Source of the DNA: Candidatus Kapaibacterium sp.
GTDB lineage: Bacteria > Bacteroidota > Ignavibacteria > OLB7
Length of the DNA stretch: 64,000 nt
Reading direction: 5' to 3'
Assembly: GCA_035539855.1 (NCBI GenBank)
Contig: DATLHO010000153.1
Location: 2,151 to 66,150 of the forward strand
Shown: piece after piece, positions 34,880-55,035 of the stretch
How the letters are laid out: each line of letters opens with the position of its first letter
Position numbering within the stretch: position 1 is the stretch's first letter
Translations under genes and position numbers: made by a program
The notes under the pieces: generated by a model
Told to the model about the DNA's origin: nothing
Seen by the model: only the letters and a program-made list of their open reading frames with translations
Databases searched by the model: none

Positions 34880-35081
34880 GTGTGAGATCGTGAGGCTCTC
34901 CGGTCGTTCCCCGTGTGTCAGGGCGCCGTCGAGCGTGAAGTGGGATGCCCGTTGAAGGCAGCCTTCCTGAGCCTGATATGACGCATTGGGCCGAGCGCAG
35001 ATTGCCTCCGACGGGCCCCGGATGTGCGTGGCTGTGTATATTTGTCGAATTGACCTTCCATCGAAGCGTAATCCCTATCCG

Positions 35082-35910: not shown

Positions 35911-37494
35911 TCAGATCACGCGCTCGTACTCGTCGATGTCGAGCTTCCACACCTTGATGCCGCAGAAGCGGTCTCCCTCGGGACACGTCGGCCGCGTGCC
36001 GGCGAAGTCACGGATCGTGCACGGCGGCAGCAGCCATCGTCCGATCCTCGGATGCACCTGGCGGATCTGGCGCGCCTCGTCGAGAGAGGCGCGCCAGATC
36101 TCCTCCTGCGCGTTGTAGCACAGCCGCATCTTGTGCTTGTGGTGCAGGTTGAGCAGATCGCTCGACTCGCTGTAGCGAACGTTGACCGCGTTCGGCAGCA
36201 GGTAGTGCGCGTGCTCGGCCGGCACGCCGTGCGCGATCAGTCTGGTCACCGCCGCCCAGCTCCGCTCCATTGCCTCGCGGTACTTCGCCGCGGCGACGGG
36301 ATTTCGCTCGACGATCTCCGGCACGTAGTAGTCGGGCTCGTCGCCGACCTGCGCCGCGAGGATCGGACGCGAGGCCGGGGTCATGCGATGGCGCTGGTCC
36401 TGCGAGTCGGCGGTGTGCGACAGTCGGCGCCGGAAAGTATAGTGCGGATGATGCATCGCGCGGGCGAGCTTCGCGTGCGTCGTCAGCGAGAGATTCTCTC
36501 CGAGGATCGGGTTGTGCGCCGGATTGAGCACGAGCTCGATCGCCTCGTCGTCGCTCATCCGGTCGCGCGTCAGCCCCACCATCTCCCTCACCGAATCGGC
36601 CATCGAGCTCTCTGCGTTGACCTTGTAGTCGACCAGACGCGAGAGCACGCCATCGAGCTCCGCATCGAACTCGCGCGCGAACGCCGGCGAGGGCGTTGCG
36701 GCGCCGTGGTACTGCTCGAAGACGCGGTACTCCGCGGTCTGCTCGATCGGCAGCGGCTCCTCGAGCACGATCGAGTAGTTCGGATCATGCTCGAGCAGTT
36801 GCCGCACCATCTCGCCGATGACGATCCGCTGCTCCAGCGGCGTGTCGAACATCTCGCCGAGTCGCCAGTAGCGCAGCAGCGTCAGCGCGGAGATCGTGTG
36901 GTACATGTACGCGAACGTGCCGATCGGCAGCACGTAGCGCGCGACCTCCTGCGAGCGCTTGGCGATGTCGCGGCGGTACTTCTCGGGGTACTTCGCGCGG
37001 TACGGAAAGCGCTCGTAGTACGCCTCGGCCGTCGTCGTCTCGAGCAGCTCGCGGAGCTCGCGGTAGAGCTCGTGCTGATACTCGATCGTCTGCTGGTAGA
37101 GCGCGAGCGCCTCGCCGGCCATCGGCGGGATAGCGACGGTGCCCGGCTTGACCGCGACGTAGCGCTGCGAGACCTGTTCGGAGTTGTAGAACGGGTGCTG
37201 GTGCAGGAACGACCAGATGAAGTGGCGCGAGACGTTGTCGAGCGTGAACTGGAACTGCGCGTGCTGGAACGTCGTGTGGTGCCCGGCGCCGTAGATGCTG
37301 CGGGCGATGTCCTTGTCGCGCGACTCACCGAAGAGCTCGAGCTGGATCGTCCCGTCGGCGACGATTCCCTTGCTCGAGTAGCACGTGCGCGCTGTGGCGA
37401 TGACGTTCTTGAAGGGAGATTCGAAGGCCTTCTCGAGTCGGACTCGAGGCGCGGCCGAAAGAAAGCGCTGGGGCTCGGAAGTCGGAAGTGACAC
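35911..37494 (-). CDS. thyX: Flavin-dependent thymidylate synthase ThyX-family protein, long (527 aa) two-lobed form.
   Basis: The N-terminal lobe has ThyX hallmarks (ARTCYSS, GHHTTFQHAQFQF, SQRY) but RHF in place of RHR. The C-terminal lobe carries a second RHR (RHRMTPASRP). Confidence 0.55.
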   Translation of the reverse strand: MSLPTSEPQRFLSAAPRVRLEKAFESPFKNVIATARTCYSSKGIVADGTIQLELFGESRDKDIARSIYGAGHHTTFQHAQFQFTLDNVSRHFIWSFLHQHPFYNSEQVSQRYVAVKPGTVAIPPMAGEALALYQQTIEYQHELYRELRELLETTTAEAYYERFPYRAKYPEKYRRDIAKRSQEVARYVLPIGTFAYMYHTISALTLLRYWRLGEMFDTPLEQRIVIGEMVRQLLEHDPNYSIVLEEPLPIEQTAEYRVFEQYHGAATPSPAFAREFDAELDGVLSRLVDYKVNAESSMADSVREMVGLTRDRMSDDEAIELVLNPAHNPILGENLSLTTHAKLARAMHHPHYTFRRRLSHTADSQDQRHRMTPASRPILAAQVGDEPDYYVPEIVERNPVAAAKYREAMERSWAAVTRLIAHGVPAEHAHYLLPNAVNVRYSESSDLLNLHHKHKMRLCYNAQEEIWRASLDEARQIRQVHPRIGRWLLPPCTIRDFAGTRPTCPEGDRFCGIKVWKLDIDEYERVI

Positions 37495-37670
37495 GCGACG
37501 ATGGTACGGTTAGGCTGCTGTTCGGCTCGGAGGTCCCGGCAATATACGCCGCTGTCCGAACGCAGCGCTGCCCTGACAGAACCACCGTTCCGCCAGGGCA
37601 GCGTTGCGAACTCTGGTCGAGCCGCCGTTCCTCGGGCCGCCGATCTCCGGCCGTCGGCCGCGGTCGTCGT

Positions 37671-39194: not shown

Positions 39195-39554
39195 ATGCAG
39201 ATGCACCGACCACGCTTCACACGAATCCGAGTACTTGCCTTTATCGCTGCCGCGCTCGCCGGCGCCGCGCTGACGCTCGTCGTCGTCGAGGTGCCGCAGC
39301 AGCGCTACCTCACGGTCAACCCGTCGCTGACGCAGCGCTTCGTCCAGGTCCCGAGCGAGCAGTCGCTGATCGACCTGAGCTACCGCCTGCAGAGCGTCCA
39401 GGGCGTCACCGGCGTCAGCTTCCGAGACTATTCGACGCGCGACCGCTCGGCGCTCGTGACCGTCTTCTTCAATCCGCGCCAGACCTCGGTCCGGCAGCTC
39501 AAGATCTTCATGCTGCACACTCGCATTCTCTGGCAGCAGGAGATGAACGTCTGA
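39195..39554 (+). CDS. Small signal-anchored hypothetical protein (119 aa).
   Basis: An N-terminal transmembrane/signal segment (VLAFIAAALAGAALTLVVV). There is no homology support and the local GC is lower. Confidence 0.4.
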   Translation: MQMHRPRFTRIRVLAFIAAALAGAALTLVVVEVPQQRYLTVNPSLTQRFVQVPSEQSLIDLSYRLQSVQGVTGVSFRDYSTRDRSALVTVFFNPRQTSVRQLKIFMLHTRILWQQEMNV

Positions 39555-39579
39555 TCGTCGATCGTCGATGACGAATACG

Positions 39580-39617
39580 ACACAGGGGATCGCGGCTCAT
39601 GCCGCGATCCCCTGTGT
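39580..39617. terminator. Bidirectional hairpin between the small ORF (+) and the giant C25 gene (-).
   Basis: A perfect 17-bp inverted repeat (acacaggggatcgcggc tcat gccgcgatcccctgtgt) followed by cttt. Confidence 0.5.
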
Positions 39618-39636
39618 CTTTGAAGGGCGTCCGTGC

Positions 39637-42600
39637 CTAGCGCATGACGACGAGCTTCTCGATGACCTCCACCTTCCCGTCCGCGCTCTCGATCATCAGC
39701 CGGTAGAGGTAGACGCCGTTGGCGAGCGGATCTCGATCGTCGTCGAGCCCATCCCATTCGATGTGATTGAAGCCGAGGTGCACGTCGGCGGGTCCGAGCG
39801 GGATCGACTTGATCCTGCGACCGGCGACCGTGTAGATCGCGATCTCGCCTCCGGTCGGCTGCGAGCCGCCGGCGACACCGAAGGTGAACTCGGTCCGCTC
39901 GCGGAACGGGTTCGGATAGTTCACCGCCTCGACGATGCGCAACGCGCGCTCGACCTGGAAGCGAACGAACTCCGACTCGGTGCGGTTGCCCGAGGCATCG
40001 CGCGCCATGTAGGTGATGGTGTGCTCGCCGTTCTCGAGGCCGGGCGCCGGCGGCGTGTACACGAAGCTCGCCCGCGCGTCGCCTCCGGGGGCCGGATCGA
40101 ACTGCGCGCCGGAGTCGAGCGTGATCTCGACGAGGTCGAGGAACATGCCGATCGCGGTCGAGTCGGCGATCCGCAGCCGGGAGTTGTCGAAGAGTCGAAG
40201 CTCGAAGCGTGCCATCGGCGAGACGAAGTCGCCGTCCATGACTCTGACGCCGTCGGCATAGACGGCAAGCCGCGGACGCGTCGTATCGAAGCCCGCACGC
40301 ATCGACGCGGTGTCGGTATTGTTGTGCCGGTACGGCTCCGCCGGATCGTCGGTCGGATTGAGCTGGACGATGAACGCGTTCGACGCGCCGAATCGATCGG
40401 TGGCCAGATCGAACGCGACCTCGCGGCGCTCCATCGGCGCGATCGTCACCGGGAGCGCGTCGATCTCGCGCCACTCGCCGACCGATCGATGCCGAAGAGC
40501 GACGCCGACGCTGTCAGCGCCATACCTGCGCGAGAGGTTCACGACGGTGAGCGAAAGCCGCGCGGGATCTCCCTGCAGCACCGAGTCGCGATCGAGGTCG
40601 ATGCTGCGCGGAACGATCGCCAGCTCCGGCGACGGCTCGAAGTCGACCTCGATCGAGCGCAGTCGCGTCGTCGAGTCCTGGGCGAATCGCGTGCGCAGCT
40701 CCAGGCGTGGGTAGCGCGCGACGTCGACGAAGCCGAGATCGATGTCACCCACCGCATCGGCGCTCGCGAGCGAATCGCGCACGCCGTCGCGACGCACACC
40801 GACAATCGTGACGACAGGCCGCGCGCCGGCGTCGCCGAAACCGAGCCGCGCCGTGCGCCACGCGGTCGCCGGACCGATCGTCGGAGTCGTCATGACTCCC
40901 GGAGAAGGCCTGATGAAGAACTCCATGTCCGTCGAGACCTTCGCGTACTGAACGCCGGTGCGACGCGCGCGAGCGAGCGAGTCACCGTAGACCCATGCCT
41001 GGCTCCGGGGCATGTCGCGGCCACCGATCAGCACGTACGAGTCGTCGTTGCCGATGCTGTCGACGTCGAAGACGGCGCCGAGCGACGCAAGCGCCTCGCG
41101 CAACGCGGCGCTCTCGCGCAGTCCATCGAACGATCTGCCGTTGGTGCCGACGACGACGGGATGTCCGGCGGGAATGGTCGCGATGAAGCGAACCGCCGAG
41201 TCGATCATCGGACCGTTCTCGAAGAAGACGTAGTTGACGTAGAAGTCCGGGATGAGCTCGAGCGTCTCGGGCTCGAGCACCGCGATCTGCAGGCCCGCCC
41301 GGTTCTGATTCGACAACCGGCGCTTCGTGCCCGATCCGTCCTCGACGTAGATGTCGATCTTGGTGTCGCTGATCAGGTCGCCGTTGGCGTAGCGCGACTG
41401 TCCGACGGCCTCGGCGACGAGCCGCGCGCGGCGCGATCCGGGGCCGACGCCGTCGTCGGCGTTGACGAGGTTCTCGGTGCGACCGGCCATCTGCAGCCGC
41501 CCGCCCATCAGGAACTCGGCGCGCGCGGCCGGCTCGACCGTGAACGTCTCGATCAACGGAAAGCGCCGGGCGATCTCGATGTCGCCGGTCGTGGAAATCG
41601 CGCGCCACCAGAACCGCCGCGCTCCACGCAGCTCCGACGGGATCGAGAACGTCCACGTCGTCGTGAGGTCGTCGGTCGTCATGCTGCCGACCGTCGCGCT
41701 GGTGAACGGCGCCGCATCGAACGTCGGGACGGTATCGACGGTGAGCTCGGCCCCGCCGCCGCTCGCGGGATTGAGCAGCCGGATCACGACGTCGTCGTAG
41801 CCGGCGACACGCCCGAACGACACCGGCTCCAGCGTCAGCGGCTGGTTCCCCCGCACCGGCACGACCTGTACGATGACGTTGTCGGCGCGGTAGCTCTCGT
41901 CGACCTGCATCAGGGGATCGGCCTCGATGCGGATCGTGTAATCGCCGGGCTTCCCATCGAGCGGGAGCGTCAGCGTCACCGACTGCGATCGACCGAGCCG
42001 CTCGACGATGACCGTGTCGGTGCGCTCGGTGCGGTCGGGACCGATGATCGTCCCGACGACCGTGATCGCCGTGTCGCCGTCGCCGTCGATCGCGAGGATC
42101 GGGCGACCGTAATTGAACAGGTCGACGCGCACCGTCGCCGCGCTGTCGGTGACCGAGAGCGCTCCGCCGGTCGCGTTGGCGAGCGAGAGATTCTGGAACC
42201 CGAGCTCGCGCTTGCGACTGACCTTCAGGTCCTGCGACGGATCGCCGAGCAGCGTGTACTGCATCAGGTGATTGCGCGCGCGGAAGCCCTCGTACCCCTG
42301 ATGCCACCACGCCTCCTCAGCCCCTCCGAAGAGCGACCACTTCGCGATCGTGGTGAGCGCGCCGAGCGCGCGGACCGAGTCGTACGTGAAGTACGCGAGC
42401 GCCAGACCGACGGTCTGGTTGTTCATGCTCTGGTACGACCAGCCGGTCGAGCCGTAGGTCGCGATCGCGCCGCGCCGCGGGGCCTTCAGGAAGTCCTCGT
42501 TGCGAAGCGACGACTCGACCTCGGAGAACGCGCCGGTCTGACAACTGAACGTGCCGAGCACGAAGTATCGGCTGCCGTTGTCGATCTCCTCGGGCATTCC

Positions 42601-45600
42601 GAAGTCCAGGTCGAGCACCGTGCGCGAGCCGTGCCCGGCAGCGTTGACCCAGACACCGCTCTCGGCCATTGCCTCCTGCGCCCACCGCGAGTCCTCGTGC
42701 GGCGGCGTCGTTGGGAAGCCCAGGATCGTACGGCGCCAGCGAATCGTGGTGTCGCCCTGGAACCCCTGGTACATCACGTAGTCGCTCGCGAGCGCCTCGG
42801 CGAACGACCGGTTGACCGATACTTCTTCCGCGTTCTCGCCGCCGGCGATGAAGACGACCCGCTTGTTCCACTCCGCCGGCGCGCTCGTGTCGTACTCGAT
42901 GATCTTGTCGACCATCACGTCGCCGTCGCGCGGGGTCATCGCGGGGATTCGCCCGATGAACTGGTTGAACGACGAGCCGACGTCGAATGACCAGCGCTCG
43001 ATCGCCGTGTCGGCAAGACCGCGGAACGGCATCGTGTACCAGTAGTCCGACGCTGGCTCGCCGAAGGTCGGCACGTAGTCGATCATCTTGGATTTGAGCG
43101 TGCGACGCTGCGGATCGGCAGAGGCGTCGCCGAAGAGGATCACATAGCCGGGAGCCGGCGCCGCCCAGTTCGAGTCGGCGTACTGCAGAAACGAGCGTAT
43201 CGGAAGTTGATGCTTCACGCCCGAGCCGAACTCGTCGTACACGTCGTTGACGTCGACGACGCGCACGGCGAAGTCGCGCGCTCCGGCCGGGGCGTGCGCT
43301 CTGCGATGCGCCGCCAAACGCTCGGCCTGGTCTCTGAACGCGGGATGCGTGATGATGATGAGGTCCGCACGATTGTCCGAGCCGACGAGCTCGTCCCGTC
43401 GATGGTAGCGCACGGCGGGTGTCACCTCGGCGCCGAGCACGAACTCCTCGCCCGGATCACCGGCGACGGTGAAGACGGCACGGTACCGATTCCCCTGGTC
43501 GCTCGGCAGCCATTCGTCGAGCGTGACGCCGCGACTCTCGAAGCCCGTCATCGGCGCGTACTCCTCGCGCGCGCTCGACAGGTCTCCCTTGCGGGCGACG
43601 AAGGCCCACGCCGCGTAGTCGCGCCCCTGCCGCGTCGCCACGGTACTGCCGAGTGCGGTCAGTGCGGCATCGAGCTGCGCCGGGATCGGATTGAGCCCGA
43701 AGCCGTGCGAGGTGCCCGCGACGATGAAGTTCCCGCTGCTCACGCCCTCGAGGAACGCCGCCGCGCGCGTCAGCTCGGCGGCATCGTTGAACGTTCGGAA
43801 AGCATCGCGTCGCACGATCGTGCCGGCCGCGTCGAGCTCGACCATGACGAGACCGAGGAAGAACGTGCCGCTGGCGACGAGAGAGTCGCCGAAGGTTGCC
43901 GAGAAGCCGTAGTTGGCGCGGTCGCCGCCGGCGTAGTACGTCCGCGACGACATCCGGAAATGCAGGCCGGGCGTCGCGCCCGAGTCGATGACCACGCGCG
44001 TGCGTGCGCTCATCGCGTGCGTCGCCGGCGCGGGTAGGCCGTTGAGCCGGACGCGCATCGGCGCACCGGTCGTCGCGCTGCTCGGGATCGTGAACCGCGG
44101 ACTGGCCTCGGTCGTCGACGCGCGCCACGGTCCGCGCAGCTCGAACCAGTCTAGCAGAAGCCGGTACTGCACGTCGCCCTCGTGCAGGATGAAGATCTTC
44201 AGCGTGTTGCGTCCGTTGACGAGGAAGTGCGCTGGAACCGTCACGTCGATCGTCGTGTCGCTGCGCGGCGGCAGCATGAACGAGCCGGCACGCCCGTAGT
44301 CGTTGAGCACGAGGTCGATCGGCGTCGCCTGCGTCGCCGCGTTGGCGATGCGCACGCGCAGCGCGTAGGAGCCGTTGGGCTGGAGCGCCGGCGCGCAATT
44401 GAACGTGAAGCTCTCGTTGCGCGCACCCGAGCCCCGAAAGTCGTACCAGACGAAGCCTTCGCCCGGCACGCGCTCGGAGACGTGCACCGTCCTGATGTCA
44501 CCACCCCATTCCTTCCCGCCTTCCTGGCCCTTTTCAGGCTCCGGCATCGACATGCCGATGAAGTACGTCAGCTCCTGCTCGAAGTGCAGCGTCGAGTCAT
44601 ACGCGCGCATGGCGGGCGCGTCCGCCGACAGCGCGACGTCGGCGATGCGCAGCGGTTCTCCGGCACGACCGTCCCACGACAGGACGTACGCGTTCGTGTC
44701 GGTTACCGCATCGTAGTAATCGGGCCAGCTCGAGTCGCCGCCGAAGAAGTCGCCATCGATGCCGCGGTTGCGCTCGCCCGGGAACTCGACGAAGTCGGCG
44801 CCGTCGAACCTGCCGTTCGCGTCGACGTCTCCGACATGGATCGGGCGCGACTGGCCGCGATGCTGCAGCGCGAGCAACGCGACAGGCGTGCCTGCGAGTG
44901 ACGTTGCACTCTCGGTGAGCTCGGCGGCGGAGACGCGATAGATGCCGTCGCGCGGGACGAGCAGGATCATCGCCTCTCCGATCCCCCAGCCGACAGTGCC
45001 CGATTGCAGCGTAGCACGCGATGCGCGACCTCGCCAGCTCTTCGCCTGCGCATAGTTGACGACGAGCGCCGCGAGCGCGTGGTCGATCCCCGCGGACTCG
45101 ACGACGGACTCCTTCGCGAGTCCCGTCGGAATGCCGCTCCACGTGAGCGCGATCGTGAACGCCGTGTCGACGGCGACGGTCGTGCCGGAGATGCGGATCG
45201 GATCGTAGGTCAGGGTGATGGTCGACAGTCCGCGGATCGAGCGCAGGGCGCCGATGCCGACACCCTGCCGTGCGGTCCCGTTCATCACTGGAGCTTCGAG
45301 CGGCATTGCCATGCTCGCCACGTCGGTCATCGCCGTGCGAAAGCCGGCGACGCCCGGAGGCACCGCGACGGTCAACTGAAGCGACGGCGCGGCGAGCGAA
45401 TCGCGCTGAAGGGCATGCCGCGAAGCGTTGTGGGCGAGGCGAACCGCAGCTCCCTCACGCATCAGGTCGGCGCGCAGTTCGGAGATCCGCAGCACGACGC
45501 CGCTCGCGTCACTGCGCACGACGCTGACGCGCGCCTGCGCCGACGGCACAACGGACTGCGCGTGCAGCACAGTCGCCGCGGCCAGTAGAAGAACGAGACT

Positions 45601-45624
45601 GAGGAGGAAGCCCGGAAATCTCAT
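39637..45624 (-). CDS. Giant (~1995 aa) secreted C25-family (gingipain/PorU-like) cysteine peptidase with a T9SS (Por) C-terminal sorting domain.
   Basis: It has a signal peptide (MRFPGFLLSLVLLLAAATVLHAQS). A central C25 block follows (DLIIITHPAF…VVDVNDVYDEF…IRSFLQY…YVILFGD), with the catalytic His (AAGHGS) and Cys (GTFSCQTG) intact. The C-terminal ~80 aa match a T9SS CTD (NYPNPF…GEIAIYTVAGRRI…GVYLYRL…KLVVMR). The start was set at the internal Met at 45624. Confidence 0.8.
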   Translation of the reverse strand: MRFPGFLLSLVLLLAAATVLHAQSVVPSAQARVSVVRSDASGVVLRISELRADLMREGAAVRLAHNASRHALQRDSLAAPSLQLTVAVPPGVAGFRTAMTDVASMAMPLEAPVMNGTARQGVGIGALRSIRGLSTITLTYDPIRISGTTVAVDTAFTIALTWSGIPTGLAKESVVESAGIDHALAALVVNYAQAKSWRGRASRATLQSGTVGWGIGEAMILLVPRDGIYRVSAAELTESATSLAGTPVALLALQHRGQSRPIHVGDVDANGRFDGADFVEFPGERNRGIDGDFFGGDSSWPDYYDAVTDTNAYVLSWDGRAGEPLRIADVALSADAPAMRAYDSTLHFEQELTYFIGMSMPEPEKGQEGGKEWGGDIRTVHVSERVPGEGFVWYDFRGSGARNESFTFNCAPALQPNGSYALRVRIANAATQATPIDLVLNDYGRAGSFMLPPRSDTTIDVTVPAHFLVNGRNTLKIFILHEGDVQYRLLLDWFELRGPWRASTTEASPRFTIPSSATTGAPMRVRLNGLPAPATHAMSARTRVVIDSGATPGLHFRMSSRTYYAGGDRANYGFSATFGDSLVASGTFFLGLVMVELDAAGTIVRRDAFRTFNDAAELTRAAAFLEGVSSGNFIVAGTSHGFGLNPIPAQLDAALTALGSTVATRQGRDYAAWAFVARKGDLSSAREEYAPMTGFESRGVTLDEWLPSDQGNRYRAVFTVAGDPGEEFVLGAEVTPAVRYHRRDELVGSDNRADLIIITHPAFRDQAERLAAHRRAHAPAGARDFAVRVVDVNDVYDEFGSGVKHQLPIRSFLQYADSNWAAPAPGYVILFGDASADPQRRTLKSKMIDYVPTFGEPASDYWYTMPFRGLADTAIERWSFDVGSSFNQFIGRIPAMTPRDGDVMVDKIIEYDTSAPAEWNKRVVFIAGGENAEEVSVNRSFAEALASDYVMYQGFQGDTTIRWRRTILGFPTTPPHEDSRWAQEAMAESGVWVNAAGHGSRTVLDLDFGMPEEIDNGSRYFVLGTFSCQTGAFSEVESSLRNEDFLKAPRRGAIATYGSTGWSYQSMNNQTVGLALAYFTYDSVRALGALTTIAKWSLFGGAEEAWWHQGYEGFRARNHLMQYTLLGDPSQDLKVSRKRELGFQNLSLANATGGALSVTDSAATVRVDLFNYGRPILAIDGDGDTAITVVGTIIGPDRTERTDTVIVERLGRSQSVTLTLPLDGKPGDYTIRIEADPLMQVDESYRADNVIVQVVPVRGNQPLTLEPVSFGRVAGYDDVVIRLLNPASGGGAELTVDTVPTFDAAPFTSATVGSMTTDDLTTTWTFSIPSELRGARRFWWRAISTTGDIEIARRFPLIETFTVEPAARAEFLMGGRLQMAGRTENLVNADDGVGPGSRRARLVAEAVGQSRYANGDLISDTKIDIYVEDGSGTKRRLSNQNRAGLQIAVLEPETLELIPDFYVNYVFFENGPMIDSAVRFIATIPAGHPVVVGTNGRSFDGLRESAALREALASLGAVFDVDSIGNDDSYVLIGGRDMPRSQAWVYGDSLARARRTGVQYAKVSTDMEFFIRPSPGVMTTPTIGPATAWRTARLGFGDAGARPVVTIVGVRRDGVRDSLASADAVGDIDLGFVDVARYPRLELRTRFAQDSTTRLRSIEVDFEPSPELAIVPRSIDLDRDSVLQGDPARLSLTVVNLSRRYGADSVGVALRHRSVGEWREIDALPVTIAPMERREVAFDLATDRFGASNAFIVQLNPTDDPAEPYRHNNTDTASMRAGFDTTRPRLAVYADGVRVMDGDFVSPMARFELRLFDNSRLRIADSTAIGMFLDLVEITLDSGAQFDPAPGGDARASFVYTPPAPGLENGEHTITYMARDASGNRTESEFVRFQVERALRIVEAVNYPNPFRERTEFTFGVAGGSQPTGGEIAIYTVAGRRIKSIPLGPADVHLGFNHIEWDGLDDDRDPLANGVYLYRLMIESADGKVEVIEKLVVMR

Positions 45625-45715
45625 GCGCTCAGGAGGATGGGTGTACCACGGCGCGTGCCGGGCCAACGATTCTGAGACGTAGCGGCGGCGAAGATGTTGG
45701 CGGGCGGTGATCGAG

Positions 45716-47053
45716 TCAATTCCTTTGACCGTCCGTTCCTGGCTGCGACGCGCGCGCCGCCCTCGCAGGCCAGGCACCGGGCAGGAACGAGCCGAGAACG
45801 AGCGGGAACGCGAGAAAGAGCTGCAGGCGGTCGGCGACGACCGGACTGGTGAAGCCGCCGACGATCACGGTGATCGTCGTTGCAAGCAGCCAGAGCGACG
45901 CGAATCGATCGAGCGGCCGCCGTGCCGCGGCAACGGTTCGCAGGTTCATGCGCAGCACGGCCCAGAACATCGCCGCCCACGCGAGCAGTCCCAGGATCCC
46001 CGCGCGCAGCAGTGTGTACATGTAGATGTTGTGCGGCATCAGCGAGCTGACGTTGTCGAACTCGATCGCCGTCGCGTTGCGGGTGATGGTCCCCATCGGC
46101 CAGCCGGTCAGCGGCCGCTCCATGATCATCACGCTGACATTGTAGAGCTCGAGCAGACGGTAGGCCGAGGAGCCCTCCTTCGAGGGATCGGAGACGGAGC
46201 TGGTGACGCGCTCGCCGAAGTCCACCCCGAGTGTCATGACCACCGCGGCGGACGCGACGACGAAGAGCGTCGACAGGACGATCGCGGCGCGGCGCTCGCG
46301 GCCGCGGAGCTTGAGGATGAGCACCGGAAGCGCGATGGCGATGCCGAGCATATACGAGCGGCGCATCGAGGCCATGAACATGATCGTCGCGATCGGCAGT
46401 AGCCAGACGAGCACGCGGCGGATCCGCGCGTACGTCTCGTCGCCGTCGGCGCGAATCAATAGCGCGACCACTCCGCCGACGGCCATCATCGCCAGCAGCA
46501 GGCCGTCGCGCCAGCTCGTCAGAAGTCCCCAGGCAATCCCCCACTTCAGCCAGATCGCCAGGCCCTCGACGAATCGGTACGATCCCGCCAGGATGATCAT
46601 CCAGATCATCACCGGCACCTCGGATCGCCTGAACAGGAAGAGGTACAGGAAGAACGTGGCGACGAAGACCGGCATGTACAGGAGCTCGAGAGGCAGACGG
46701 ATTCCGCCCTCGACCGCGAACATGTGCAGCAGCGGATACAGGCAGCAGACGATGCCGACGATCGTCATGCTCCGGGAGACCGGCGAGCGCTCGAACCAGT
46801 AATCGCCGATCGCGATGCGCCGCATCATCTCGAGTCCGAGGATCACCAGCAGCAGCACCTCGATGAACGAGAACGCGTTGCCGACGATGGGTTCGAGAAA
46901 CCACAGTCTCAGTGGCGAATCGTCGACGCGGGCGCCGTAGCCGAGTGTCAGGACGACGACCGCCACGATGAACAGACGGACCGGGTCGGCGAAGTAATCG
47001 CTGACGACCCGTGACGGCGCGGCATAGGCGGTATTCGCGGCGACGGTCCTCAC
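45716..47053 (-). CDS. O-antigen ligase / Wzy-like polysaccharide polymerase (multi-transmembrane).
   Basis: About 11 predicted transmembrane helices with a larger periplasmic loop near the C-terminus, typical of the Wzy_C/O-antigen ligase family. The start overlaps the GT4 stop (ATGA). Confidence 0.65.
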   Translation of the reverse strand: MRTVAANTAYAAPSRVVSDYFADPVRLFIVAVVVLTLGYGARVDDSPLRLWFLEPIVGNAFSFIEVLLLVILGLEMMRRIAIGDYWFERSPVSRSMTIVGIVCCLYPLLHMFAVEGGIRLPLELLYMPVFVATFFLYLFLFRRSEVPVMIWMIILAGSYRFVEGLAIWLKWGIAWGLLTSWRDGLLLAMMAVGGVVALLIRADGDETYARIRRVLVWLLPIATIMFMASMRRSYMLGIAIALPVLILKLRGRERRAAIVLSTLFVVASAAVVMTLGVDFGERVTSSVSDPSKEGSSAYRLLELYNVSVMIMERPLTGWPMGTITRNATAIEFDNVSSLMPHNIYMYTLLRAGILGLLAWAAMFWAVLRMNLRTVAAARRPLDRFASLWLLATTITVIVGGFTSPVVADRLQLFLAFPLVLGSFLPGAWPARAARASQPGTDGQRN

Positions 47054-48339
47054 GTGGCAATGAGCTCCTCGGTCTCGTGACGCAGCGTCCGTCCGGCGAG
47101 CTCCTCGATGAGCTCGACGGTGCGGCGGACGAAGGCATCGACCGAATACTCGTGGAGCGCGCGCTCTCGTCCGATGCCGACGCGGCGTGCGACCTCATCG
47201 GGCTCGTCGAGCAGCCGCTCGAGCGTCGCGAACAGGGCGTCGACGTCGTCGGCCGGGTAGATGAAGCCGCCATCGCCGATTACCGCGGGGATCTCTCCGC
47301 TCGAGGATCCGACGACCGGCGTCTCGACGAGCATCGCCTCGGCGAGCACGCGTCCGAACTGCTCGCACCAGGCGGCGCGCGACGGCAGCACGAACGCGTC
47401 CGCGGCGCACATCCAGGTGCGGATCTGCTCGTTGGCGACCGAGCCTCGCAGCTCGATGCGATCGCCCGCGCCGCTCGTATCGGCGCGCGCGCGAAGGACG
47501 ACGTCGTGTTCGCCGGCGCCCAGCAGCACGAGCCGCATCGGCCGCTCCGGACGCGTCAGCGCGAGTCGCGCGAAGGCGTCGACGAGGTCGTCGAGTCCCT
47601 TGAGCTCGAGCAGGCGGCCGGCATAGAGAACGATGAACTCGTCGACGGCCAGGCCGAGCGCAACCCGCGCCTCGTCGCGCGGAATCCGCGTGAAGAGCGA
47701 CTCGTCGACACCGAAGAAATTCGTCCGGGCGGCGGTGAAGCCCTCGGCGTGCAGGGCGCGCGTGGCAGCGTCGTTGATGCACATCGCGGCGTCGAACCGT
47801 TCGTGCATCGTGCGCGCGAGCCAGCGGAAGAAGAATGCCGGCCGATACCACAGCCGGTCGTACGGCATGATCCAGCAGGCGTAGAAGGCCACGCGCGCCG
47901 TCGGAGCGTAGATCCGGCGCAAGGCCTCGATCTGCACGGCGAACGACGAGAACGCCTCCTCCATCAGCACGATCACCTCTGGTCGGGACTCGCGCATCGC
48001 ACGGGCGACTCCCGAGAGGTAGATCGAGCGCACTTCACGACCCGGGAACGTGACCCGACCGACGACCGTGCGATACGGCTCGTCCGGCTCGGACGCGTGA
48101 ACGTTCCACTGCGAGTTCTCCGGCCAGGCATGCGGCGACAGCAGCGTCAGGTCGATGTTCGCCATGCGCGCGACGCGCGTCCACCGGCGGCGCACGCTCG
48201 CGACCGGCGCGACGTGGTCGACCACGAGGACGCGCAGCGCTCGCGCCGTGGGCTCGCCGGTACGCACGGTATGCGCCCGTGCCGTGCGCTCTCTGGCGCC
48301 CACCAGTGGCTCGCTCGACCTGTGCTCGCTGGCGCTCAT
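47050..48339 (-). CDS. Family 4 glycosyltransferase (GT-B).
   Basis: The C-terminal GT4 motif (E…F/LPS……EQFGRVLAEAM…PVVGS) and an N-terminal Rossmann strand (LRVLVVDH). Confidence 0.8.
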   Translation of the reverse strand: MSASEHRSSEPLVGARERTARAHTVRTGEPTARALRVLVVDHVAPVASVRRRWTRVARMANIDLTLLSPHAWPENSQWNVHASEPDEPYRTVVGRVTFPGREVRSIYLSGVARAMRESRPEVIVLMEEAFSSFAVQIEALRRIYAPTARVAFYACWIMPYDRLWYRPAFFFRWLARTMHERFDAAMCINDAATRALHAEGFTAARTNFFGVDESLFTRIPRDEARVALGLAVDEFIVLYAGRLLELKGLDDLVDAFARLALTRPERPMRLVLLGAGEHDVVLRARADTSGAGDRIELRGSVANEQIRTWMCAADAFVLPSRAAWCEQFGRVLAEAMLVETPVVGSSSGEIPAVIGDGGFIYPADDVDALFATLERLLDEPDEVARRVGIGRERALHEYSVDAFVRRTVELIEELAGRTLRHETEELIAT

Positions 48340-49637
48340 CAGTTGCGGCTCTGCTCGCCGCCGGCGGCAATGCGCCTGCGGCGCCGGCCGCCCAGGGCCT
48401 CACGCAGCGCCATGACGCGCTCGGGATCAACCGCCTGCGACTGTCGACGGAACGCCTCGACGATGAACACGCCGACGATTCCCGCGATGATCAATGCCGG
48501 AAACGCCACGAGCATCGTGATCGTCCGACGCGGCGCCGAGCGGAACTCCGGCGGCACGGCAGCGTCGAGCGCGCTGACCGTCGGCAGATCACGCGCCTCC
48601 TGCACCTCCTCCTGATGGTACTGCGCCTCGAGGAACGTGTACACCTGGGTGGCGACCTCGAGATCGAGCTTGAGCGTCGCGTAGTCCTTTGCCAGATCGG
48701 GGACGTTGCGCATGTCGAGCGCGAACGGCGCCGAGCCGGTGCTGCCGCTGGAGACGCGGTTCTTCTGCTGCGCGAGCTGGCGCAGGCGCGCCTCGAGCAT
48801 CTTCACCTGCGGCGTCGCCTCGGTCAGCTCGCTCTGCGCGGCGCGCAGCTCGAGCTCGGTCTTCTGCACCTGCGCCTCGATCTCGGCCAGCGCCGTGACC
48901 GACGCCTCGACCTGCTTGTCGAGCGCGATCGCCTTGTTCGCGCGCTGGAACTGCATCATCGCGACCTGCGCCTGGTCCATCTCCTTGCGCTTGATCGTCT
49001 TCATTCGACCGATGAACTCGCGCGATCGCCGCGCGCTCGAGATGTTCTTCTCGCGATTGAAGCGATCGAGCAGGTCGATCGACGCGTTGACAACGTCCGC
49101 GGCGAAGCGCGCGGCCTCACGCTGCTCGTCCTTCGACGGCATGTAGCCGGTCTTCGCGTTGTAGGTGATCTCGATCATCCCCTCGCGATCGGAGCTCGCG
49201 TCGAGCTCCCCGCGCAGTCGCGTGCGGGCCAGCTCGTACTGTCCCGGGGCAAGCCCGTAGCGCTCGATCAGATTGAACCGGCGCACGAGGCTGTCGGCGA
49301 GCGTGCGCGAGCCGAGCATCTTGACGAAGATCTCCGCCGAGCCGTTCTTGCCGAGCGACTGCAGGTCGAGCCCGGCGCTCTTGCCGATCAGGTCGGTGAA
49401 GCTGACACCCTTCTGCTGCTCCGGCGGCATGAGCGTCGCCGACGCGCTGTAGGTCTGCGGCTGCACCGAGGTATAGCCGATCACGACCGCCATGCCGAGC
49501 ACGACGAACGCGACGAGCTTCCAGCGATGACGCGCGAGGATGATCAGGTAATCGTAGACGTGCGCACGCGGCGGCGGCTCGCCGGCAAGGGCGATCTCGT
49601 GTCCGTTGTTCATCAGGGGGCTCTCGCTTGCGTTCAT
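48339..49637 (-). CDS. Polysaccharide chain-length determinant (Wzz/GumC-like PCP) without a kinase domain.
   Basis: An N-terminal transmembrane helix, a long coiled-coil periplasmic domain, and a C-terminal transmembrane helix (ITMLVAFPALIIAGIVGVFIV). Confidence 0.7.
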   Translation of the reverse strand: MNASESPLMNNGHEIALAGEPPPRAHVYDYLIILARHRWKLVAFVVLGMAVVIGYTSVQPQTYSASATLMPPEQQKGVSFTDLIGKSAGLDLQSLGKNGSAEIFVKMLGSRTLADSLVRRFNLIERYGLAPGQYELARTRLRGELDASSDREGMIEITYNAKTGYMPSKDEQREAARFAADVVNASIDLLDRFNREKNISSARRSREFIGRMKTIKRKEMDQAQVAMMQFQRANKAIALDKQVEASVTALAEIEAQVQKTELELRAAQSELTEATPQVKMLEARLRQLAQQKNRVSSGSTGSAPFALDMRNVPDLAKDYATLKLDLEVATQVYTFLEAQYHQEEVQEARDLPTVSALDAAVPPEFRSAPRRTITMLVAFPALIIAGIVGVFIVEAFRRQSQAVDPERVMALREALGGRRRRRIAAGGEQSRN

Positions 49638-49658
49638 CGGTTCAGGTCGGACTGGTCA

Positions 49659-51314
49659 CTAGTTCGCGTTGCTTGCGCGGATGCTCACGACGACGGCAAT
49701 GATCGTCGCGACCTGTGCCGCAATCGTCATCACCGTCGTGAAGCCCTCCCAGAACTCCGCCGGCTTTTCCTCCGGAACCCAGATCTGGTCGCCCGGCTCG
49801 AGCCGGTAGCTGTCGTCGTTGGAGGCGAGAAAGACCTCGCCCGATCCTTCCTTGACGATCTCGGTCGCTCCATCGTCTGCGCGCCAGCCGAATCCGCCGG
49901 CGAGCTCGACATACTCACGGTAGGTCATTCCCTCGTGATAGGTGACCGCACCGGGGTTGTTGACCTTGCCTGCCACGCGAATGACGCCCTTGGTCTCCGG
50001 CACGTGTACCGAGTCATTGTCCATGAGGACGAGATTCTCCGACTGGTCGCCGCGCATCAGCGCGGCGAAGTCGACGGTCATCTCGCCCGGGCGGTTGAGC
50101 TCGCGGATCTTCTGGCGGCGGTAATCGATCTCCTCGCGTGAACGCTTCTCCGGGTCGATCTCGTTGATCGACGCCAGGCGTGGATCAGGTTCGCCGGCGA
50201 GTCTCCGACGGAACAGCGACGCGTTGTCGAGCGATGCATCGGGAGTGACGCCTCCCGCCTGCTGCAGGACGTCGTACAGACGCGTGCGGCCGCGTTCGAT
50301 CGCATAGGAGCCCGGGAACGCGACCTCGCCGGTGACCACGACGCGGTCGGTCTTGCGGAAGCTGCCGATGCCGCGAACGAACACGCGGTCGCCAGGACGC
50401 AGCGCGCGGTCGTCGCTGACGGAGCCGTCGGCCCCCAGGCGGTGGATCGATCGCTCGACGACGACGCCGCTCTCGTCGACGCTGACGACTTCGACCGAAT
50501 CGCGATCGGCGTCGGCGGTCGGTCCCATCGCGTAGCGGATGATCGAGGAGATCGAATCGCGCTCGTTGAAGGTGTACTCGCCCTCTCGCTGGACGGCGCC
50601 GAAGACCTGGACGATCGCGTTCTCGTCCTGGAACGGAACGATGACGACGTCGCCGTCCTCGAGCGGCGGGTTGGCCGTGCGCTCACCGAGACTGTAGAAC
50701 GGCAGCAGGTCGACCATCGAGGTCCGTCCGTCGGCGTGGCGCACGCTGATGCGGCGCATCTCGGCCTGCGACGAGGCCCCGCCGGCAAGCGCGATCGCTT
50801 CGCTGACGCGGGTCGTCGGCGCGGCGACGATCGCACTCGGCGTCAGCACAGCGCCGGTGACGTTGACCTTGAACTTGCGCATCCGTCGCAGCGCGACCGC
50901 GACGCTCGCCGAGTGGTAGGTGCGCGCGACGGCATCGGCGACCGCGCGCTCGACCTGGCTGAGCGTCCTGCCGCGGACGTCGACCGCGCCGACGCCCTGG
51001 ATCAGCAGCCGCCCGTCGGGGCTGACCTCGAGGTCCTGCTGGATCGGCCTGGCCGAGACGATCGAGATCGTCAGGACGTCCGCCGGACCGACCCGATAGA
51101 CGTTCGGATCGATCGGACCTTCGTAGAGGCCCGAGGTCTCCTCGGTCCGGATCCGTCCCTCCCGCAGCGCCGTCGTATCGACCGGCGCGGGGTCGCCGGT
51201 CGTGCCGGGATAGCGCGGACCGTCGCCGGTGACGATCTGGGCGCGGAGCGTTCCGGTAACCGTGAGGAGGAGCGCGATGCCGAGGATGAGGCGCAGTCGA
51301 CGGTAGGAAGTCAT
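49659..51314 (-). CDS. Polysaccharide export outer-membrane protein (Wza-like; Poly_export plus SLBB repeats).
   Basis: A signal peptide, then a Poly_export motif (YRVGPGDVL…I……VSPDG.I..P.VG.V.V.G.T) and repeated SLBB-like units. The start was set at the internal MTSYRRL. Confidence 0.8.
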   Translation of the reverse strand: MTSYRRLRLILGIALLLTVTGTLRAQIVTGDGPRYPGTTGDPAPVDTTALREGRIRTEETSGLYEGPIDPNVYRVGPADVLTISIVSARPIQQDLEVSPDGRLLIQGVGAVDVRGRTLSQVERAVADAVARTYHSASVAVALRRMRKFKVNVTGAVLTPSAIVAAPTTRVSEAIALAGGASSQAEMRRISVRHADGRTSMVDLLPFYSLGERTANPPLEDGDVVIVPFQDENAIVQVFGAVQREGEYTFNERDSISSIIRYAMGPTADADRDSVEVVSVDESGVVVERSIHRLGADGSVSDDRALRPGDRVFVRGIGSFRKTDRVVVTGEVAFPGSYAIERGRTRLYDVLQQAGGVTPDASLDNASLFRRRLAGEPDPRLASINEIDPEKRSREEIDYRRQKIRELNRPGEMTVDFAALMRGDQSENLVLMDNDSVHVPETKGVIRVAGKVNNPGAVTYHEGMTYREYVELAGGFGWRADDGATEIVKEGSGEVFLASNDDSYRLEPGDQIWVPEEKPAEFWEGFTTVMTIAAQVATIIAVVVSIRASNAN

Positions 51315-51561
51315 CGAATAGGGTTCAGAGGCTGTTCGGACCACGGACGCGGTGTCGTCCGGCGGGCGCGGGCGCCCGTTCGAAGACACCGCGCGCGGAT
51401 ACAGTTTCATAAGGTACACCCCGGTGAGGGACGGACGCAAGGATTCAGGGGTGCCCCCCGCCGGCTGGGAGTCGTCGTTGTCGAGACGGCTCCAAGACAA
51501 GAGTGCGAACCGGCGGGCGCCGATTCGCACTCGAAGTAACCACCGGTCGGCTCCTCGTCGA

Positions 51562-52317
51562 TCAGGAGACGATCGCCTTGAGGTACTGCCGGCGCATGCG
51601 CGCGATCGAGGTGATCGAGATCTCCTTCGGACAGACCGCCTCGCACTCACCGAAGTTCGAGCAGTCGCCGAAGCCCTCGGTCTCCATCTGATCGACCATC
51701 CGCACGACGCGGCGCTTTGCCTCGGACTCGCCCTGCGGAAGCAGCGAGAGCTGCGAGATCTTCGCCGCAGTGAACAGTGCGGCCGAGCCGTTCGGGCACG
51801 CCGCGACGCAGGCGCCGCAGCCGATACACGCGGCGTAATCCATCGCCTCGTCGGCGGCGGCCTTCGCGATCGGCAGCGAGTTCGCGTCGACCGCGTTGCC
51901 GGTGTTGACCGAGACGTAGCCGCCGGATGCGATGATCCGATCGAGCGCCGAGCGGTCGACGACCAGGTCGCGAAGGACCGGGAAGGCCGTCGCGCGCCAG
52001 GGCTCGATCACCACCGTGTCGCCGTCGCGGTAGTGCCGCATGTGAAGCTGGCAGACGGCCGTCCCCTTCCAGGGACCGTGCGCCTCGCCGTCGATCACCA
52101 TGCTGCACGAGCCGCAGATGCCCTCGCGACAGTCGTTGTCGAACTCGATCGGCATCTCTCCGTTGGAGATGAGCTTCTCGTTCAACAGATCGAGCATCTC
52201 CAGAAAGGACATGTGCGGGTTGACCGCCTCGAGCGTGTAGGGCACAAGCTTACCAGGAGCAGTTGGAGCCTCCTGACGCCACACCTTCAGTTTCAGAGTC
52301 ATTCCGTGGTCTGTCAT
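51562..52317 (-). CDS. sdhB: Succinate dehydrogenase/fumarate reductase iron-sulfur subunit.
   Basis: The 2Fe-2S cysteines (CREGICGSC), the 4Fe-4S cysteines ([12 protein letters not shown]) and the 3Fe-4S cysteines (C…CPK). Confidence 0.9.
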
Positions 52318-52324
52318 GGCTCAC

Positions 52325-54262
52325 CTATTTGTAGCTGCGCTGTGAGGGCTTGACGAACTCGAAGTCGAGCTCCTCCTTGTGCATCATCGGGGTCGCGCCT
52401 TCGCCGGCAAACTCCCAGCAGCCGACGAACCGGAAGTTCTCGTCGTCGCGCTGGGCCTCGCCCTCCTCGGTCTGGTACTCCTCGCGGAAGTGACCGCCGC
52501 AGGACTCCTCGCGCTGCAGGGCGTCGCGAGCCATGAGCTCGCCGAGCTCCATGTAGTCGGCGACACGTCCGGCGAACTCGAGGTGCTTGTTCATCATGTC
52601 CTGCGAGCCGGGGACGCGCAGGTTCGACCAGAACTCTTCGCGTAGCGCCGCGATCGCGGTGATCGCGTGCTCGAGGCCGGCGCGGTTGCGCGCCATGCCG
52701 ACGTTGTCCCACATGATCTGCCCGAGCTCGCGATGGAACTGGGTCGGGCTCTTGGTGCCCTTGATGTCGAGCAGTCGCTGCAAGCGCGCGCGCGACGCCT
52801 CGACGGCCTCGCCGACCTCCGGCGAGCTCTCGCTGATCGGCGCGAGCGTCGTGCCGGCGATGTAGTTGCCGAGCGTGTGCGAGATGACGAAGTACCCGTC
52901 GGCCAGTCCCTGCATCAGCGCGCTGGCGCCGAGGCGATTCGCGCCGTGGTCGGAGAAGTTCGCCTCGCCGAGCACGAACAGACCGGGCACCGTGCTCTGC
53001 AGCTCGTAGTCGACCCAGAGGCCGCCCATCGTGTAGTGCACAGCCGGATAGATGCGCATCGGCGTCTGGTACGGGTCGTCGCCGGTGATCTTCTCGTACA
53101 TCTCGAAGAGGTTGCCGTAGCGCTCGGCGATGGTCTGACGGCCGAGGCGCTTGATCGAGTCGGCGAAGTCGAGGTAGACCGCCATGCCGGTCTCACCCAC
53201 GCCCTTGCCCGCGTCGGCCATCTCCTTCGCGTTGCGCGATGCGACGTCGCGCGGGACGAGGTTGCCGAAGCTCGGGTACTTGCGCTCCAGGAAGTAGTCG
53301 CGCTCGCCCTCGGGGATCTGATCGGCCGTGCGCTTCTCGCCGGGATTCTTCGGAACCCAGACGCGACCGTCGTTGCGGAGGCTTTCGCTCATCAGCGTGA
53401 GCTTCGACTGGTAGTCGCCGCTGACGGGAATGCACGTCGGATGGATCTGCGTGAACGCGGGGTTGGCGAAGAACGCGCCGCGGCGATAGCATCGCCAGGC
53501 CGCGGTGACGTTCGAGTTGCGCGCGTTCGTCGAGAGGTAGTAGACGTTGCCGTAGCCGCCGGTGCACAGCAGCACCGCGCTGCCGACGTGGCGCTCGAGC
53601 TCGCCGGTCGCGAGGTTGCGCGCGACGATGCCGCGGGCGCGGCCGTCGGCGACGATGAGATCGACCATCTCGTGCCGCGCGTACATCTCGACCTTGCCGA
53701 GGTCGACCATGCGCATCATCGCCTGGTAGGCGCCGAGCAGAAGCTGCTGGCCGGTCTGGCCGCGGGCGTAGAACGTGCGCGAGACCTGCGCGCCGCCGAA
53801 CGAGCGGTTCGACAGCAGTCCGCCGTACTCGCGGGCGAACGGAACGCCCTGGGCGACGCACTGGTCGATGATGCGATTCGAGTTCTGCGCCAGACGGTAG
53901 ACGTTGCCTTCGCGGGCGCGATAGTCACCGCCCTTGATCGTGTCGTAGAACAGACGGTAGATCGAGTCTCCGTCCTCGGGGTAGTTCTTCGCGGCGTTGA
54001 TGCCGCCCTGCGCGGCGATGCTGTGCGCGCGACGGGCGGAATCCTGGATGCAGAACGCCTTGACGTTGTAGCCGAGCTCGCCGAGCGAGGCGGCCGCGGC
54101 GGCGCCGGCCAGGCCGGTGCCGACGACGATGATCGTGTGCTTGCGCTTGTTGTTCGGGTTGACCAGCCGGCAGGAGTTCAGGTAGTTCGACCATTTCTGA
54201 TCGAGGGGACCGCTCGGAATCTTCGCTTCGAGCTTCGGGTGCGTCGTAACGGTCTGGCTCAT
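52325..54262 (-). CDS. sdhA: Succinate dehydrogenase/fumarate reductase flavoprotein subunit.
   Basis: The FAD Rossmann ([14 protein letters not shown]), the covalent-FAD His region ([15 protein letters not shown]) and the active-site motifs. The N-terminus matches the Bacteroides FrdA-type start. The start was set at the internal MSQTV. Confidence 0.9.
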
Positions 54263-54966: not shown

Positions 54967-55035
54967 AGGAGGACGGAAAATTACGACAACGCGTGAGAAG
55001 TACGATGTTGCATTACGTAGCGCTTCGGTCTCGGC

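Follow-up and report, generated by a model that had tools for sequence, protein, structure and literature searches.

The 64-kb stretch of Candidatus Kapaibacterium DNA analysed here (contig DATLHO010000153.1), hereafter the window, has a G+C content of ~67%. On its minus strand it carries a gene for a giant peptidase of family C25 (39637..45624 (-); 1,995 amino acids (aa) plus stop), which resembles PorU, the sortase of the T9SS (type IX secretion system), and which lies directly downstream of a cluster of polysaccharide genes. The open reading frame (ORF) is intact, and its G+C content at third codon positions (GC3), 0.87, is what a genuine gene of this genome should show; its product is identical to the NCBI protein 'MAG TPA: C25 family cysteine peptidase [Candidatus Kapabacteria bacterium]'. 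The likely start is the ATG at 45624, within an uninterrupted frame of 39637-45777 (-). A longer version starting with the GTG at 45777, which would overlap the wzy gene, was rejected in view of the NCBI call and of several homologues that begin at this MRF.../MK... position. Residues 1-22 (45559..45624 (-)) form a predicted signal peptide, whose cleavage site between TVLHA and QSVV was read by eye from the sequence rather than with a predictor. The initial annotation of the locus had described a secreted protein of ~1995 residues, in agreement with this ORF and its signal peptide. Cleavage as predicted (45550-45567, aa 20-25, between LHA and QSV) would leave an N-terminal Gln, which fits the Bacteroidetes 'Q-rule' named in the title of PMC5837995. 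A 1,140-aa ORF on the opposite strand (39568-42990 (+)) was dismissed as a high-GC shadow ORF, having failed the GC3-based codon-position filter that the C25 frame passes; long antisense ORFs, this one included, could mislead automatic gene callers.

Four co-directional genes precede the peptidase gene. The first encodes a Wza-like outer-membrane polysaccharide export (OPX) protein of 551 aa (49659..51314 (-); Poly_export 4.6e-15, SLBB 1.3e-32), which also scores 113 bits with the EpsE and PEP-CTERM export models of NCBIfam, under their cut-offs. It is followed by a Wzz protein or polysaccharide co-polymerase (PCP) of 432 aa (48339..49637 (-); Wzz 1e-06, GNVR 5e-08) in which no kinase domain was detected, a GT4 glycosyltransferase of 429 aa (47050..48339 (-); Glycos_transf_1 1.3e-27) and a membrane protein of the Wzy_C family of 445 aa (45716..47053 (-); Wzy_C 2.4e-14, 53.8 bits against a cut-off of 31.7). 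The last may be a polymerase or a ligase, and has a weak RfaL match in NCBIfam. Of a Wzx/Wzy-type assembly system, the OPX, PCP and Wzy-family proteins are all present. Counting from the first start codons of the ORF list, neighbours within this row are first 21 nt apart and then overlap by 1 nt and by 4 nt, and a spacer of exactly 91 nt (45625..45715 (-)) separates the Wzy_C stop codon (45716-45718) from the peptidase gene. Both the Wza-Wzz-GT4-Wzy cluster and the 91-nt gap were thus described correctly in the initial annotation.

A terminator-like hairpin, with nine G-C pairs in its 14-bp stem and a tail rich in T, lies between the sdhB stop (51562) and the wza start (51501..51532 (-)). No other strong hairpin was found on that strand in 39300-52000, and this one separates sdhCAB (51562-55035) from the polysaccharide/C25 unit. 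Because this hairpin follows sdhB, the unit appears to begin past the succinate dehydrogenase genes. A check of the 91-nt spacer for signals of independent transcription found no terminator-like site there; its RNA folds with -23.6 kcal/mol (z=+1.4), less stably than shuffled sequence. A sigma-70 promoter scan, with a model unsuited to Bacteroidota, returned zero sites. The Bacteroidota-type -7 motif TAnnTTTG is absent from the spacer on this strand even with one mismatch allowed, and none lies upstream of wza, so that neither scan placed a promoter for the Wza-Wzz-GT4-Wzy/C25 cluster. The C25 gene may be co-transcribed with the four genes before it. In the window as a whole the same motif occurs eight times against 1.2 expected, a count reached by 0/100 shuffles, at 1113-1120(-), 6423-6430(+), 12195-12202(-), 13325-13332(-), 17122-17129(-), 19549-19556(-), 35037-35044(+) and 63098-63105(-). 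By eye, most copies are near the 5' ends of same-strand ORFs, a pattern that suggests that Bacteroidota-style promoters are in use despite the high G+C content.

The catalytic domain of the peptidase spans aa 756-1130 (42235..43359 (-)) and matches Pfam PF01364 with E=2.9e-54 and 185.2 bits against a cut-off of 23, over profile positions 2-371 of 374. With this score and an aligned His/Cys pair, the protein belongs to the C25 family (PF01364 / MEROPS C25). The pair consists of His998 (42631-42633) in the motif AAGHGS (aa 995-1000) and Cys1028 (42541-42543) in FSCQTG (aa 1026-1031); in an alignment of 18 homologues (alignment A1) Cys1028 is invariant and His998 is kept in at least 90%. Single-sequence searches of the PDB did not reach these motifs, and a family profile was needed. 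In the profile the two columns fall on 'YTGHGS' (His211) and 'VACVNG' (Cys244) of RgpB (1CVR), residues counted from the alignment coordinates, which are the known catalytic residues of that enzyme, and on 'YAGHGG' and 'TATCDF' of PorU. Since the GH and SC columns of the family align with the motifs of both proteins, the dyad is correctly placed, with a His-Cys spacing of 30 residues here against 33 in RgpB. The catalytic dyad claimed in the initial annotation was therefore upheld by the hidden Markov model (HMM) and the profile comparison.

By sequence comparison, the closest solved relative of the protein over most of its length is PorU, and it is not gingipain-like. The sole PDB match found by single-sequence phmmer was Porphyromonas gingivalis PorU (6ZA2; E=2.6e-19), through the catalytic domain and the last ~200 residues, with aa 1787-1993 aligned to PorU 942-1153. 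With the family profile the E value for PorU is 2.3e-55, against 3e-18 for RgpB; profile positions 251-968 correspond to the N-terminal and catalytic domains of PorU (37-790) and positions 1588-1803 to PorU 932-1154. PorU was also the top Foldseek match for both parts of the protein that were modelled (aa 24-760 and aa 1131-1995). The non-catalytic architecture shared with PorU, namely the N-terminal beta domains, the C-terminal immunoglobulin-like (Ig) domain and the C-terminal domain (CTD), is present. Of the 'gingipain/PorU-like' label in the initial annotation, the PorU half is well founded, and the generic gingipain half is not.

The regions on either side of the catalytic core, ~800 and ~600 aa, had been reported as lacking any assignable domain. 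This is incorrect, because profile, HMM and fold matches cover them. At the N-terminus, a region like the prodomain of gingipains (~aa 23-215; 44935..45558 (-)) was found by profile, family HMM and structure model: positions 24-224 of the family profile match the RgpB prodomain (4IEF_A) with E=6.5e-22, the family prodomain HMM matches aa 25-213 of the window protein with E=3.6e-47, and the predicted fold superimposes on 4IEF prodomain chains with a template modelling (TM) score of 0.56, in a part of the model where the predicted local distance difference test (pLDDT) is 75-92. Pfam Propeptide_C25 (PF08126) has no match in the protein. Next come PorU-like N-terminal beta domains (~aa 231-560; 43945..44934 (-)), including a sandwich at ~aa 393-501 that resembles carbohydrate-binding modules (CBM) of families 6, 35 and 36. 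Foldseek with the N-terminal model gave PorU at E=7.6e-09 and CBM36/CBM6 structures at TM 0.56-0.60. An ILEI/PANDER-like domain follows (aa 585-690; 43555..43872 (-)), an insertion specific to the subclade of the window protein and absent from homologues P0007-P0016. Pfam detects it at aa 591-681 (E=5.3e-13), and in the model its fold resembles the POMGnT1 stem and FAM3B. The AlphaFold2 model of aa 24-760 is patchy (mean pLDDT 61.9) and reliable only in part; its confident portions are those matching PorU, the RgpB prodomain, CBM and POMGnT1/FAM3B.

Past the catalytic domain the profile search places a CARDB-like Ig domain (~aa 1131-1250; 41875..42234 (-)) and then a second ILEI/PANDER-like domain (aa 1440-1544; 40993..41307 (-)), kept in most of the family and assigned by the profile to the ILEI/FAM3/POMGnT1-stem fold. 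A family-specific HMM locates the two ILEI copies at aa 592-689 and 1440-1544. The penultimate Ig-like domain (aa 1787-1890; 39955..40266 (-)) is PorU-like by phmmer and has a weak Big_13 match; FlgD_ig, the other Pfam match in the peptidase, is slightly below its cut-off. At the extreme C-terminus, a PorU-type T9SS type A CTD (aa 1900-1995; 39640..39927 (-)), a seven-strand Ig-like sandwich, matches TIGR04183 / PF18962 above cut-off, which places it in that family and sustains the T9SS domain of the initial annotation. It scores 63 bits with the PorU model's own C-terminus against 23.9 bits with the generic T9SS tail model. The AlphaFold2 model of aa 1131-1995 is confident (pLDDT 82.8) and consists of a string of beta-sandwiches and one alpha/beta ILEI domain; a hidden enzyme domain in these 865 residues was ruled out on that basis.

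The protein is one of a large family. At E<=1e-30, a profile of the C-terminal 845 positions matches 2,673 representatives of 50%-identity clusters; most of the best 150 match from end to end, in proteins 1,750-2,450 aa long. A scan of genomes, one per species, with the single window protein found no relatives; with alignment A1 it confirmed more than 571, from Ignavibacteria, Kapabacteria-like metagenome-assembled genomes, Chlorobi-like bacteria, Cytophagia, Sphingobacteriia, Flavobacteriaceae and Rhodothermales. An oversized PorU relative is thus no rarity, and the clade of PorU2, with its partner PorV2, already has NCBI models. Judged by sequence, the family divides into canonical PorU, PorU2 and a third, unnamed group linked to polysaccharide genes, which includes the window protein. 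A crude, unbootstrapped neighbour-joining tree, built on a trimmed MAFFT alignment, puts the PorV2-linked proteins into a single clade and the polysaccharide-linked ones into several deeper clades, basal and paraphyletic. PorV2-linked proteins of Rufibacter and Terrimonas score 257 and 157 bits with the PorU model and 1,023 and 901 bits with the PorU2 model; three polysaccharide-linked relatives other than the window protein score 264-384 and 387-393 bits (cut-offs 420 and 450, respectively). The prodomain was detected by family HMM in 25/35 polysaccharide-linked and 0/12 PorV2-linked proteins, and serves as the marker of the former; the ILEI domain was considered for this role and rejected, as the family HMM also finds it in 8/12 PorV2-linked proteins.

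The bona fide PorU2 of Tunicatimonas has only a PorV2-sized gene upstream and no glycosyltransferases. Because the PorU2-PorV2 pair mirrors the PorU-PorV pair, the family behaves like attachment machinery rather than like free proteases. PorV2, a barrel of the PorV/PorQ family (552 bits), is encoded immediately upstream of true PorU2, for example at 8788-9879 of locus L069, sometimes with overlapping start and stop codons, and equivalent genes occur beside the Bacteroidia/Cytophagia-type giants of L031, L032, L036, L038, L042, L049, L072 and L077. Tandem head-to-tail giants were also seen, two per genome in L019, L022, L028, L032, L036, L046, L057, L061, L068 and L074, and three in L021; they suggest diversification of paralogues, possibly towards different cargo or glycan specificities.

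We surveyed the neighbours of 80 family loci, the best-scoring of the more than 571 and not phylogenetically independent of one another, by longest-ORF calling, BLASTP clustering and annotation of cluster representatives. Counted as polysaccharide families were GT4, GT2, WecG, WecA, Wzx, UDP-galactopyranose mutase (GLF), WbaP, PglF-like dehydratase and aminotransferase. Upstream and co-directional with the giant, GT4 was found in 36 loci, GT2 in 32, WecG in 19 (mostly immediately upstream), Wzx in 14 and UDP-galactopyranose mutase in seven, together with WecA and WbaP-type initiating transferases, a PglF-like dehydratase and a PseC/PglE-like aminotransferase. Among the 52 species-level loci with at least 4 kb of upstream sequence, 31 have at least two co-directional polysaccharide genes among the six genes upstream, three have exactly one, and 10, all of one clade, have PorV2. 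The downstream side served as an internal control: at least two polysaccharide genes were present upstream in 29/48 loci against downstream in 2/45 (Fisher p=2.8e-9). When relatives from the polysaccharide clade were checked individually, with independent gene calls and Pfam labels, 7/7 showed the linkage. Three other contigs have the exact order Wza-Wzz-GT4-Wzy_C-C25, at protein identities of 40-75% or less. In three relatives the cluster is of the GT4/Wzx/GT9/WecG kind, and wecG overlaps the peptidase gene by 4 nt; two of these relatives also have a PMT_2 gene. In another, the peptidase gene comes after genes for GT2, a polysaccharide deacetylase, a formyltransferase, two GT4 and WecA. The linkage thus spans Wza/Wzz/Wzy, Wzx/GT/WecG and WbaP/PglF/aminotransferase clusters and several deep clades, and the polysaccharide link noted at the outset for this one locus proves meaningful across relatives.

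Amine-generating steps, a PseC/PglE-like aminotransferase or a polysaccharide deacetylase, occur in several linked clusters. They fit the chemistry of PorU, because the nucleophile there is an amine of the glycan (PMC10202324). The deacetylase and formyltransferase encoded at 2558-4296 of locus L088, beside glycosyltransferase genes, make or alter amines on sugars, and a PorU-type transpeptidase needs a nucleophile of this kind. On the other side of the giant, 13 Ignavibacteria-type loci have directly downstream a gene for a conserved ~454-aa protein (for example L018 13715-15058, L029 14759-16174 and L059 15087-16493) that is absent from the window. It has no Pfam match and only a weak one to Leptospira ImpL63 (72.9 bits, cut-off 1000), and could partner the giant. 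This gene is usually followed by a convergent HAD hydrolase gene and one for a BamB-like PQQ-repeat protein. In the window, the region beyond the giant includes a 532-aa ThyX (35914-37509 (-)) in which Thy1 matches twice, as if a flavin-dependent thymidylate synthase had been duplicated or fused; in the related contig of P0002, a Thy1 protein of 527 aa has a similar place downstream of the giant. Other glycan genes of the window (GT2, GT4 and an RmlD-like reductase/epimerase) lie at 5-1198 (-), 6406-7620 (+) and 12924-13871 (-).

The anchoring of T9SS cargo has been worked out almost entirely in P. gingivalis, with its PorU, PorZ and anionic lipopolysaccharide (A-LPS). There, PorU cuts the CTD off its cargo and joins the newly made C-terminus to an amine on a linking sugar of A-LPS, PorZ delivers the A-LPS glycan, and both proteins, which retain their CTDs, dock on PorV and PorQ (PMC10202324). 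Reports place the T9SS in Ignavibacteriota/Chlorobiota as well (PMC11285876). Starting from what the sequences show (the homology and domain layout of the protein, its aligned dyad and CTD, and the conserved operon-like linkage to polysaccharide genes), we give about an even chance to the reading that the giant is a T9SS-exported cysteine transpeptidase of the PorU type, a 'sortase', functionally tied to the glycan of the adjacent cluster. Such an enzyme would be exported by Sec through its signal peptide and then by the T9SS through its PorU-like CTD, and the gingipain-type prodomain would keep it latent. Once active at the cell surface, Cys1028 and His998 would cleave the C-terminal sorting domain of T9SS cargo, and the acyl-enzyme would then be resolved by an amine on the product of the Wza-Wzz-GT4-Wzy genes, a polysaccharide or an LPS-like glycan. 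This glycan may be held by the CBM-like domain and both POMGnT1-stem-like ILEI domains, a role that falls to the separate PorZ in P. gingivalis.

Several observations weigh against this sortase reading. The window protein stays below the cut-offs of both the PorU model NF033707 (219.1 bits against 420), whose best stretch covers model positions 361-736 only, plus the C-terminus (63 bits), and the PorU2 model NF052324 (208.5 bits against 450). Neither PorU nor PorU2 has a prodomain, and the one found here is typical of zymogen proteases. Among the four genes between the sdhB terminator and the C25 gene there is no Wzx flippase, initiating phosphoglycosyltransferase or amino-sugar gene, and the 64-kb window holds neither a porV/porQ-like gene nor a T9SS core gene. 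In the survey, 8/52 loci have no polysaccharide or PorV2 neighbour, and gene calling was crude. A lectin role of bacterial ILEI domains is putative and rests on fold resemblance, and the evidence for the proposed sortase function as a whole comes from sequences and models.

The main rival reading is that the giant is itself a T9SS cargo: a gingipain-style zymogen protease or adhesin, activated by removal of the prodomain, which a canonical PorU, separate from it, would anchor to the glycan of the neighbouring cluster. Linkage would then reflect the co-production of an anchor and its passenger rather than sortase activity. The restriction of an RgpB/Kgp-like prodomain to the polysaccharide-linked clade is in line with this idea, as are a CTD of the generic type A and the long Ig/CARDB/CBM-like arrays typical of surface enzymes and adhesins. 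We nevertheless consider it unlikely. Similarity to PorU is far above that to gingipains and includes the non-catalytic N- and C-terminal domains and PorU's own CTD; the sister clade pairs with a PorV-like barrel; and a passenger protease gives no obvious reason for a translationally coupled 3' position in diverse glycan clusters of deep clades. Gingipain genes are also not known from within glycan operons, which speaks against a cargo role as well. That the adjacency has no functional meaning, a large secreted peptidase having come by chance to lie beside a polysaccharide cluster, seems to us very improbable. The 91-nt gap could hide an unrecognised promoter, none having been identified for the cluster, and the eight loci lacking either kind of neighbour fit such a chance arrangement, but the asymmetry between upstream and downstream sides, the recurrence of the linkage across cluster types and several deep clades, and the 4-nt overlaps with the upstream gene all argue otherwise.

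A third reading is a housekeeping role. The giant could be the only PorU orthologue of Kapabacteria/Ignavibacteria-type lineages, the ordinary T9SS sortase enlarged by accessory domains, with its gene in the cluster for a universal anchor glycan equivalent to A-LPS and no dedicated extra sortase in the cell. The PorU-model scores of the polysaccharide-linked relatives come near the cut-off, and several linked clusters are LPS-like, with the GT9 heptosyltransferase family, WecA/WecG, or LptF/G next door. The basal and paraphyletic position of the polysaccharide-linked state in the tree and the reported reach of the T9SS into Ignavibacteriota/Chlorobiota (PMC11285876) point the same way. A query with a Bacteroidales PorU, meant to show whether Kapabacteria or Ignavibacteria also carry a canonical PorU, does not discriminate here, as the 120 matches listed were all Bacteroidales or unnamed. 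Tandem paralogues, with two or three giants in L019, L021, L022, L061 and L068, suggest diversification over a single copy, and no porV is adjacent; on balance we regard a sole housekeeping PorU as quite unlikely.

We found no paper on PorU2, PorV2 or PorU-like proteins, nor on C25 peptidases in Ignavibacteria, and T9SS reviews describe only the PorU/PorV/PorQ/PorZ attachment complex (PMC10202324). Nor was a paper found on the arrangement, which the initial annotation had called undescribed, and its recurrence beside polysaccharide genes in dozens of related species likewise appears undescribed. NCBI curators noticed one clade with the PorU2/PorV2 models; proteins of the polysaccharide-linked clade reach none of the cut-offs and are labelled only 'C25 family cysteine peptidase'. 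The recurring placement suggests a protein-anchoring enzyme specific to its sugar cluster. Because a PorU-like family ends defined glycan operons, every genome offers a candidate for the sortase and, beside it, one for the acceptor glycan, which makes anchoring testable outside oral pathogens, and a natural fusion of sortase, lectin and prodomain might be of use in protein-glycan conjugation. More tentatively, and with the balance of our judgement somewhat against it, we propose that Kapabacteria, Ignavibacteria and Chlorobi-like lineages may carry widespread, unrecognised and self-contained 'glycan-cluster sortases': PorU-derived transpeptidases with a zymogen prodomain and with built-in ILEI/CBM-like lectin modules in place of PorZ, encoded at the 3' end of LPS or exopolysaccharide (EPS) operons and translationally coupled to them in several genomes. 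If so, each surface glycan would bring its own protein-attachment enzyme, and covalent anchoring of proteins to glycans by the T9SS would be modular and ancestral, with derived versions in Porphyromonas (the PorU-PorV-PorQ-PorZ complex) and in Bacteroidia (the PorU2-PorV2 pairs).

Known systems resemble the locus to different degrees. An analogy may be drawn with the exosortase (XrtA/EpsH)/PEP-CTERM loci for EPS, in which the gene of a sorting transpeptidase lies inside a locus of Wza, chain-length, GT4 and O-antigen-ligase-like genes; the Wza, Wzz and GT4 proteins of the window have models of the PEP-CTERM/XrtA system as best or near-best NCBIfam matches, all below cut-off. Exosortase is a polytopic membrane protein unrelated to a secreted C25 peptidase, and no PEP-CTERM system was detected in the window, so the likeness is one of arrangement logic only. 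With PorZ, the A-LPS delivery protein of P. gingivalis, the giant shares no beta-propeller homology, and glycan binding by its ILEI and CBM-like domains is suggested by fold resemblance. The gingipains RgpB and Kgp (MEROPS C25; 1CVR, 4IEF, 4RBM) have in common with it the C25 fold and dyad, an N-terminal region like their prodomain and a T9SS CTD. Their overall similarity is far weaker (3e-18 against 2e-55 for PorU), they leave the PorU-like N-terminal domains unmatched, their genomic setting differs, and no haemagglutinin/adhesin domains were detected in the window protein.

PorU2/PorV2 (NF052324/NF052325, both named 'putative') come closer. PorU2 proteins align with the window protein over their full length at 23-25% identity, have ~1,700 aa and a PorU-like CTD, and in most of the PorV2-linked proteins an ILEI domain is detectable. 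Their genes have PorV2 immediately upstream and no glycosyltransferase neighbours, whereas Wzy_C is upstream here, and the PorV2-linked proteins form a separate clade in which the prodomain was not found. Canonical PorU (PG0026; PDB 6ZA2, NF033707) shares with the giant a signal peptide, the N-terminal beta domains (PorU 37-400), a C25 domain with aligned dyad, the homologous penultimate Ig domain and PorU-type CTD (PorU 932-1154), and predicted export by the T9SS. It has 1,158 aa against 1,995 aa here, where the additions are a region like the gingipain prodomain, two ILEI domains and one CARDB domain, and ~450 aa of beta-sandwich between the catalytic domain and the C-terminus, and where the gene, with no porV beside it, forms the end of a polysaccharide operon.

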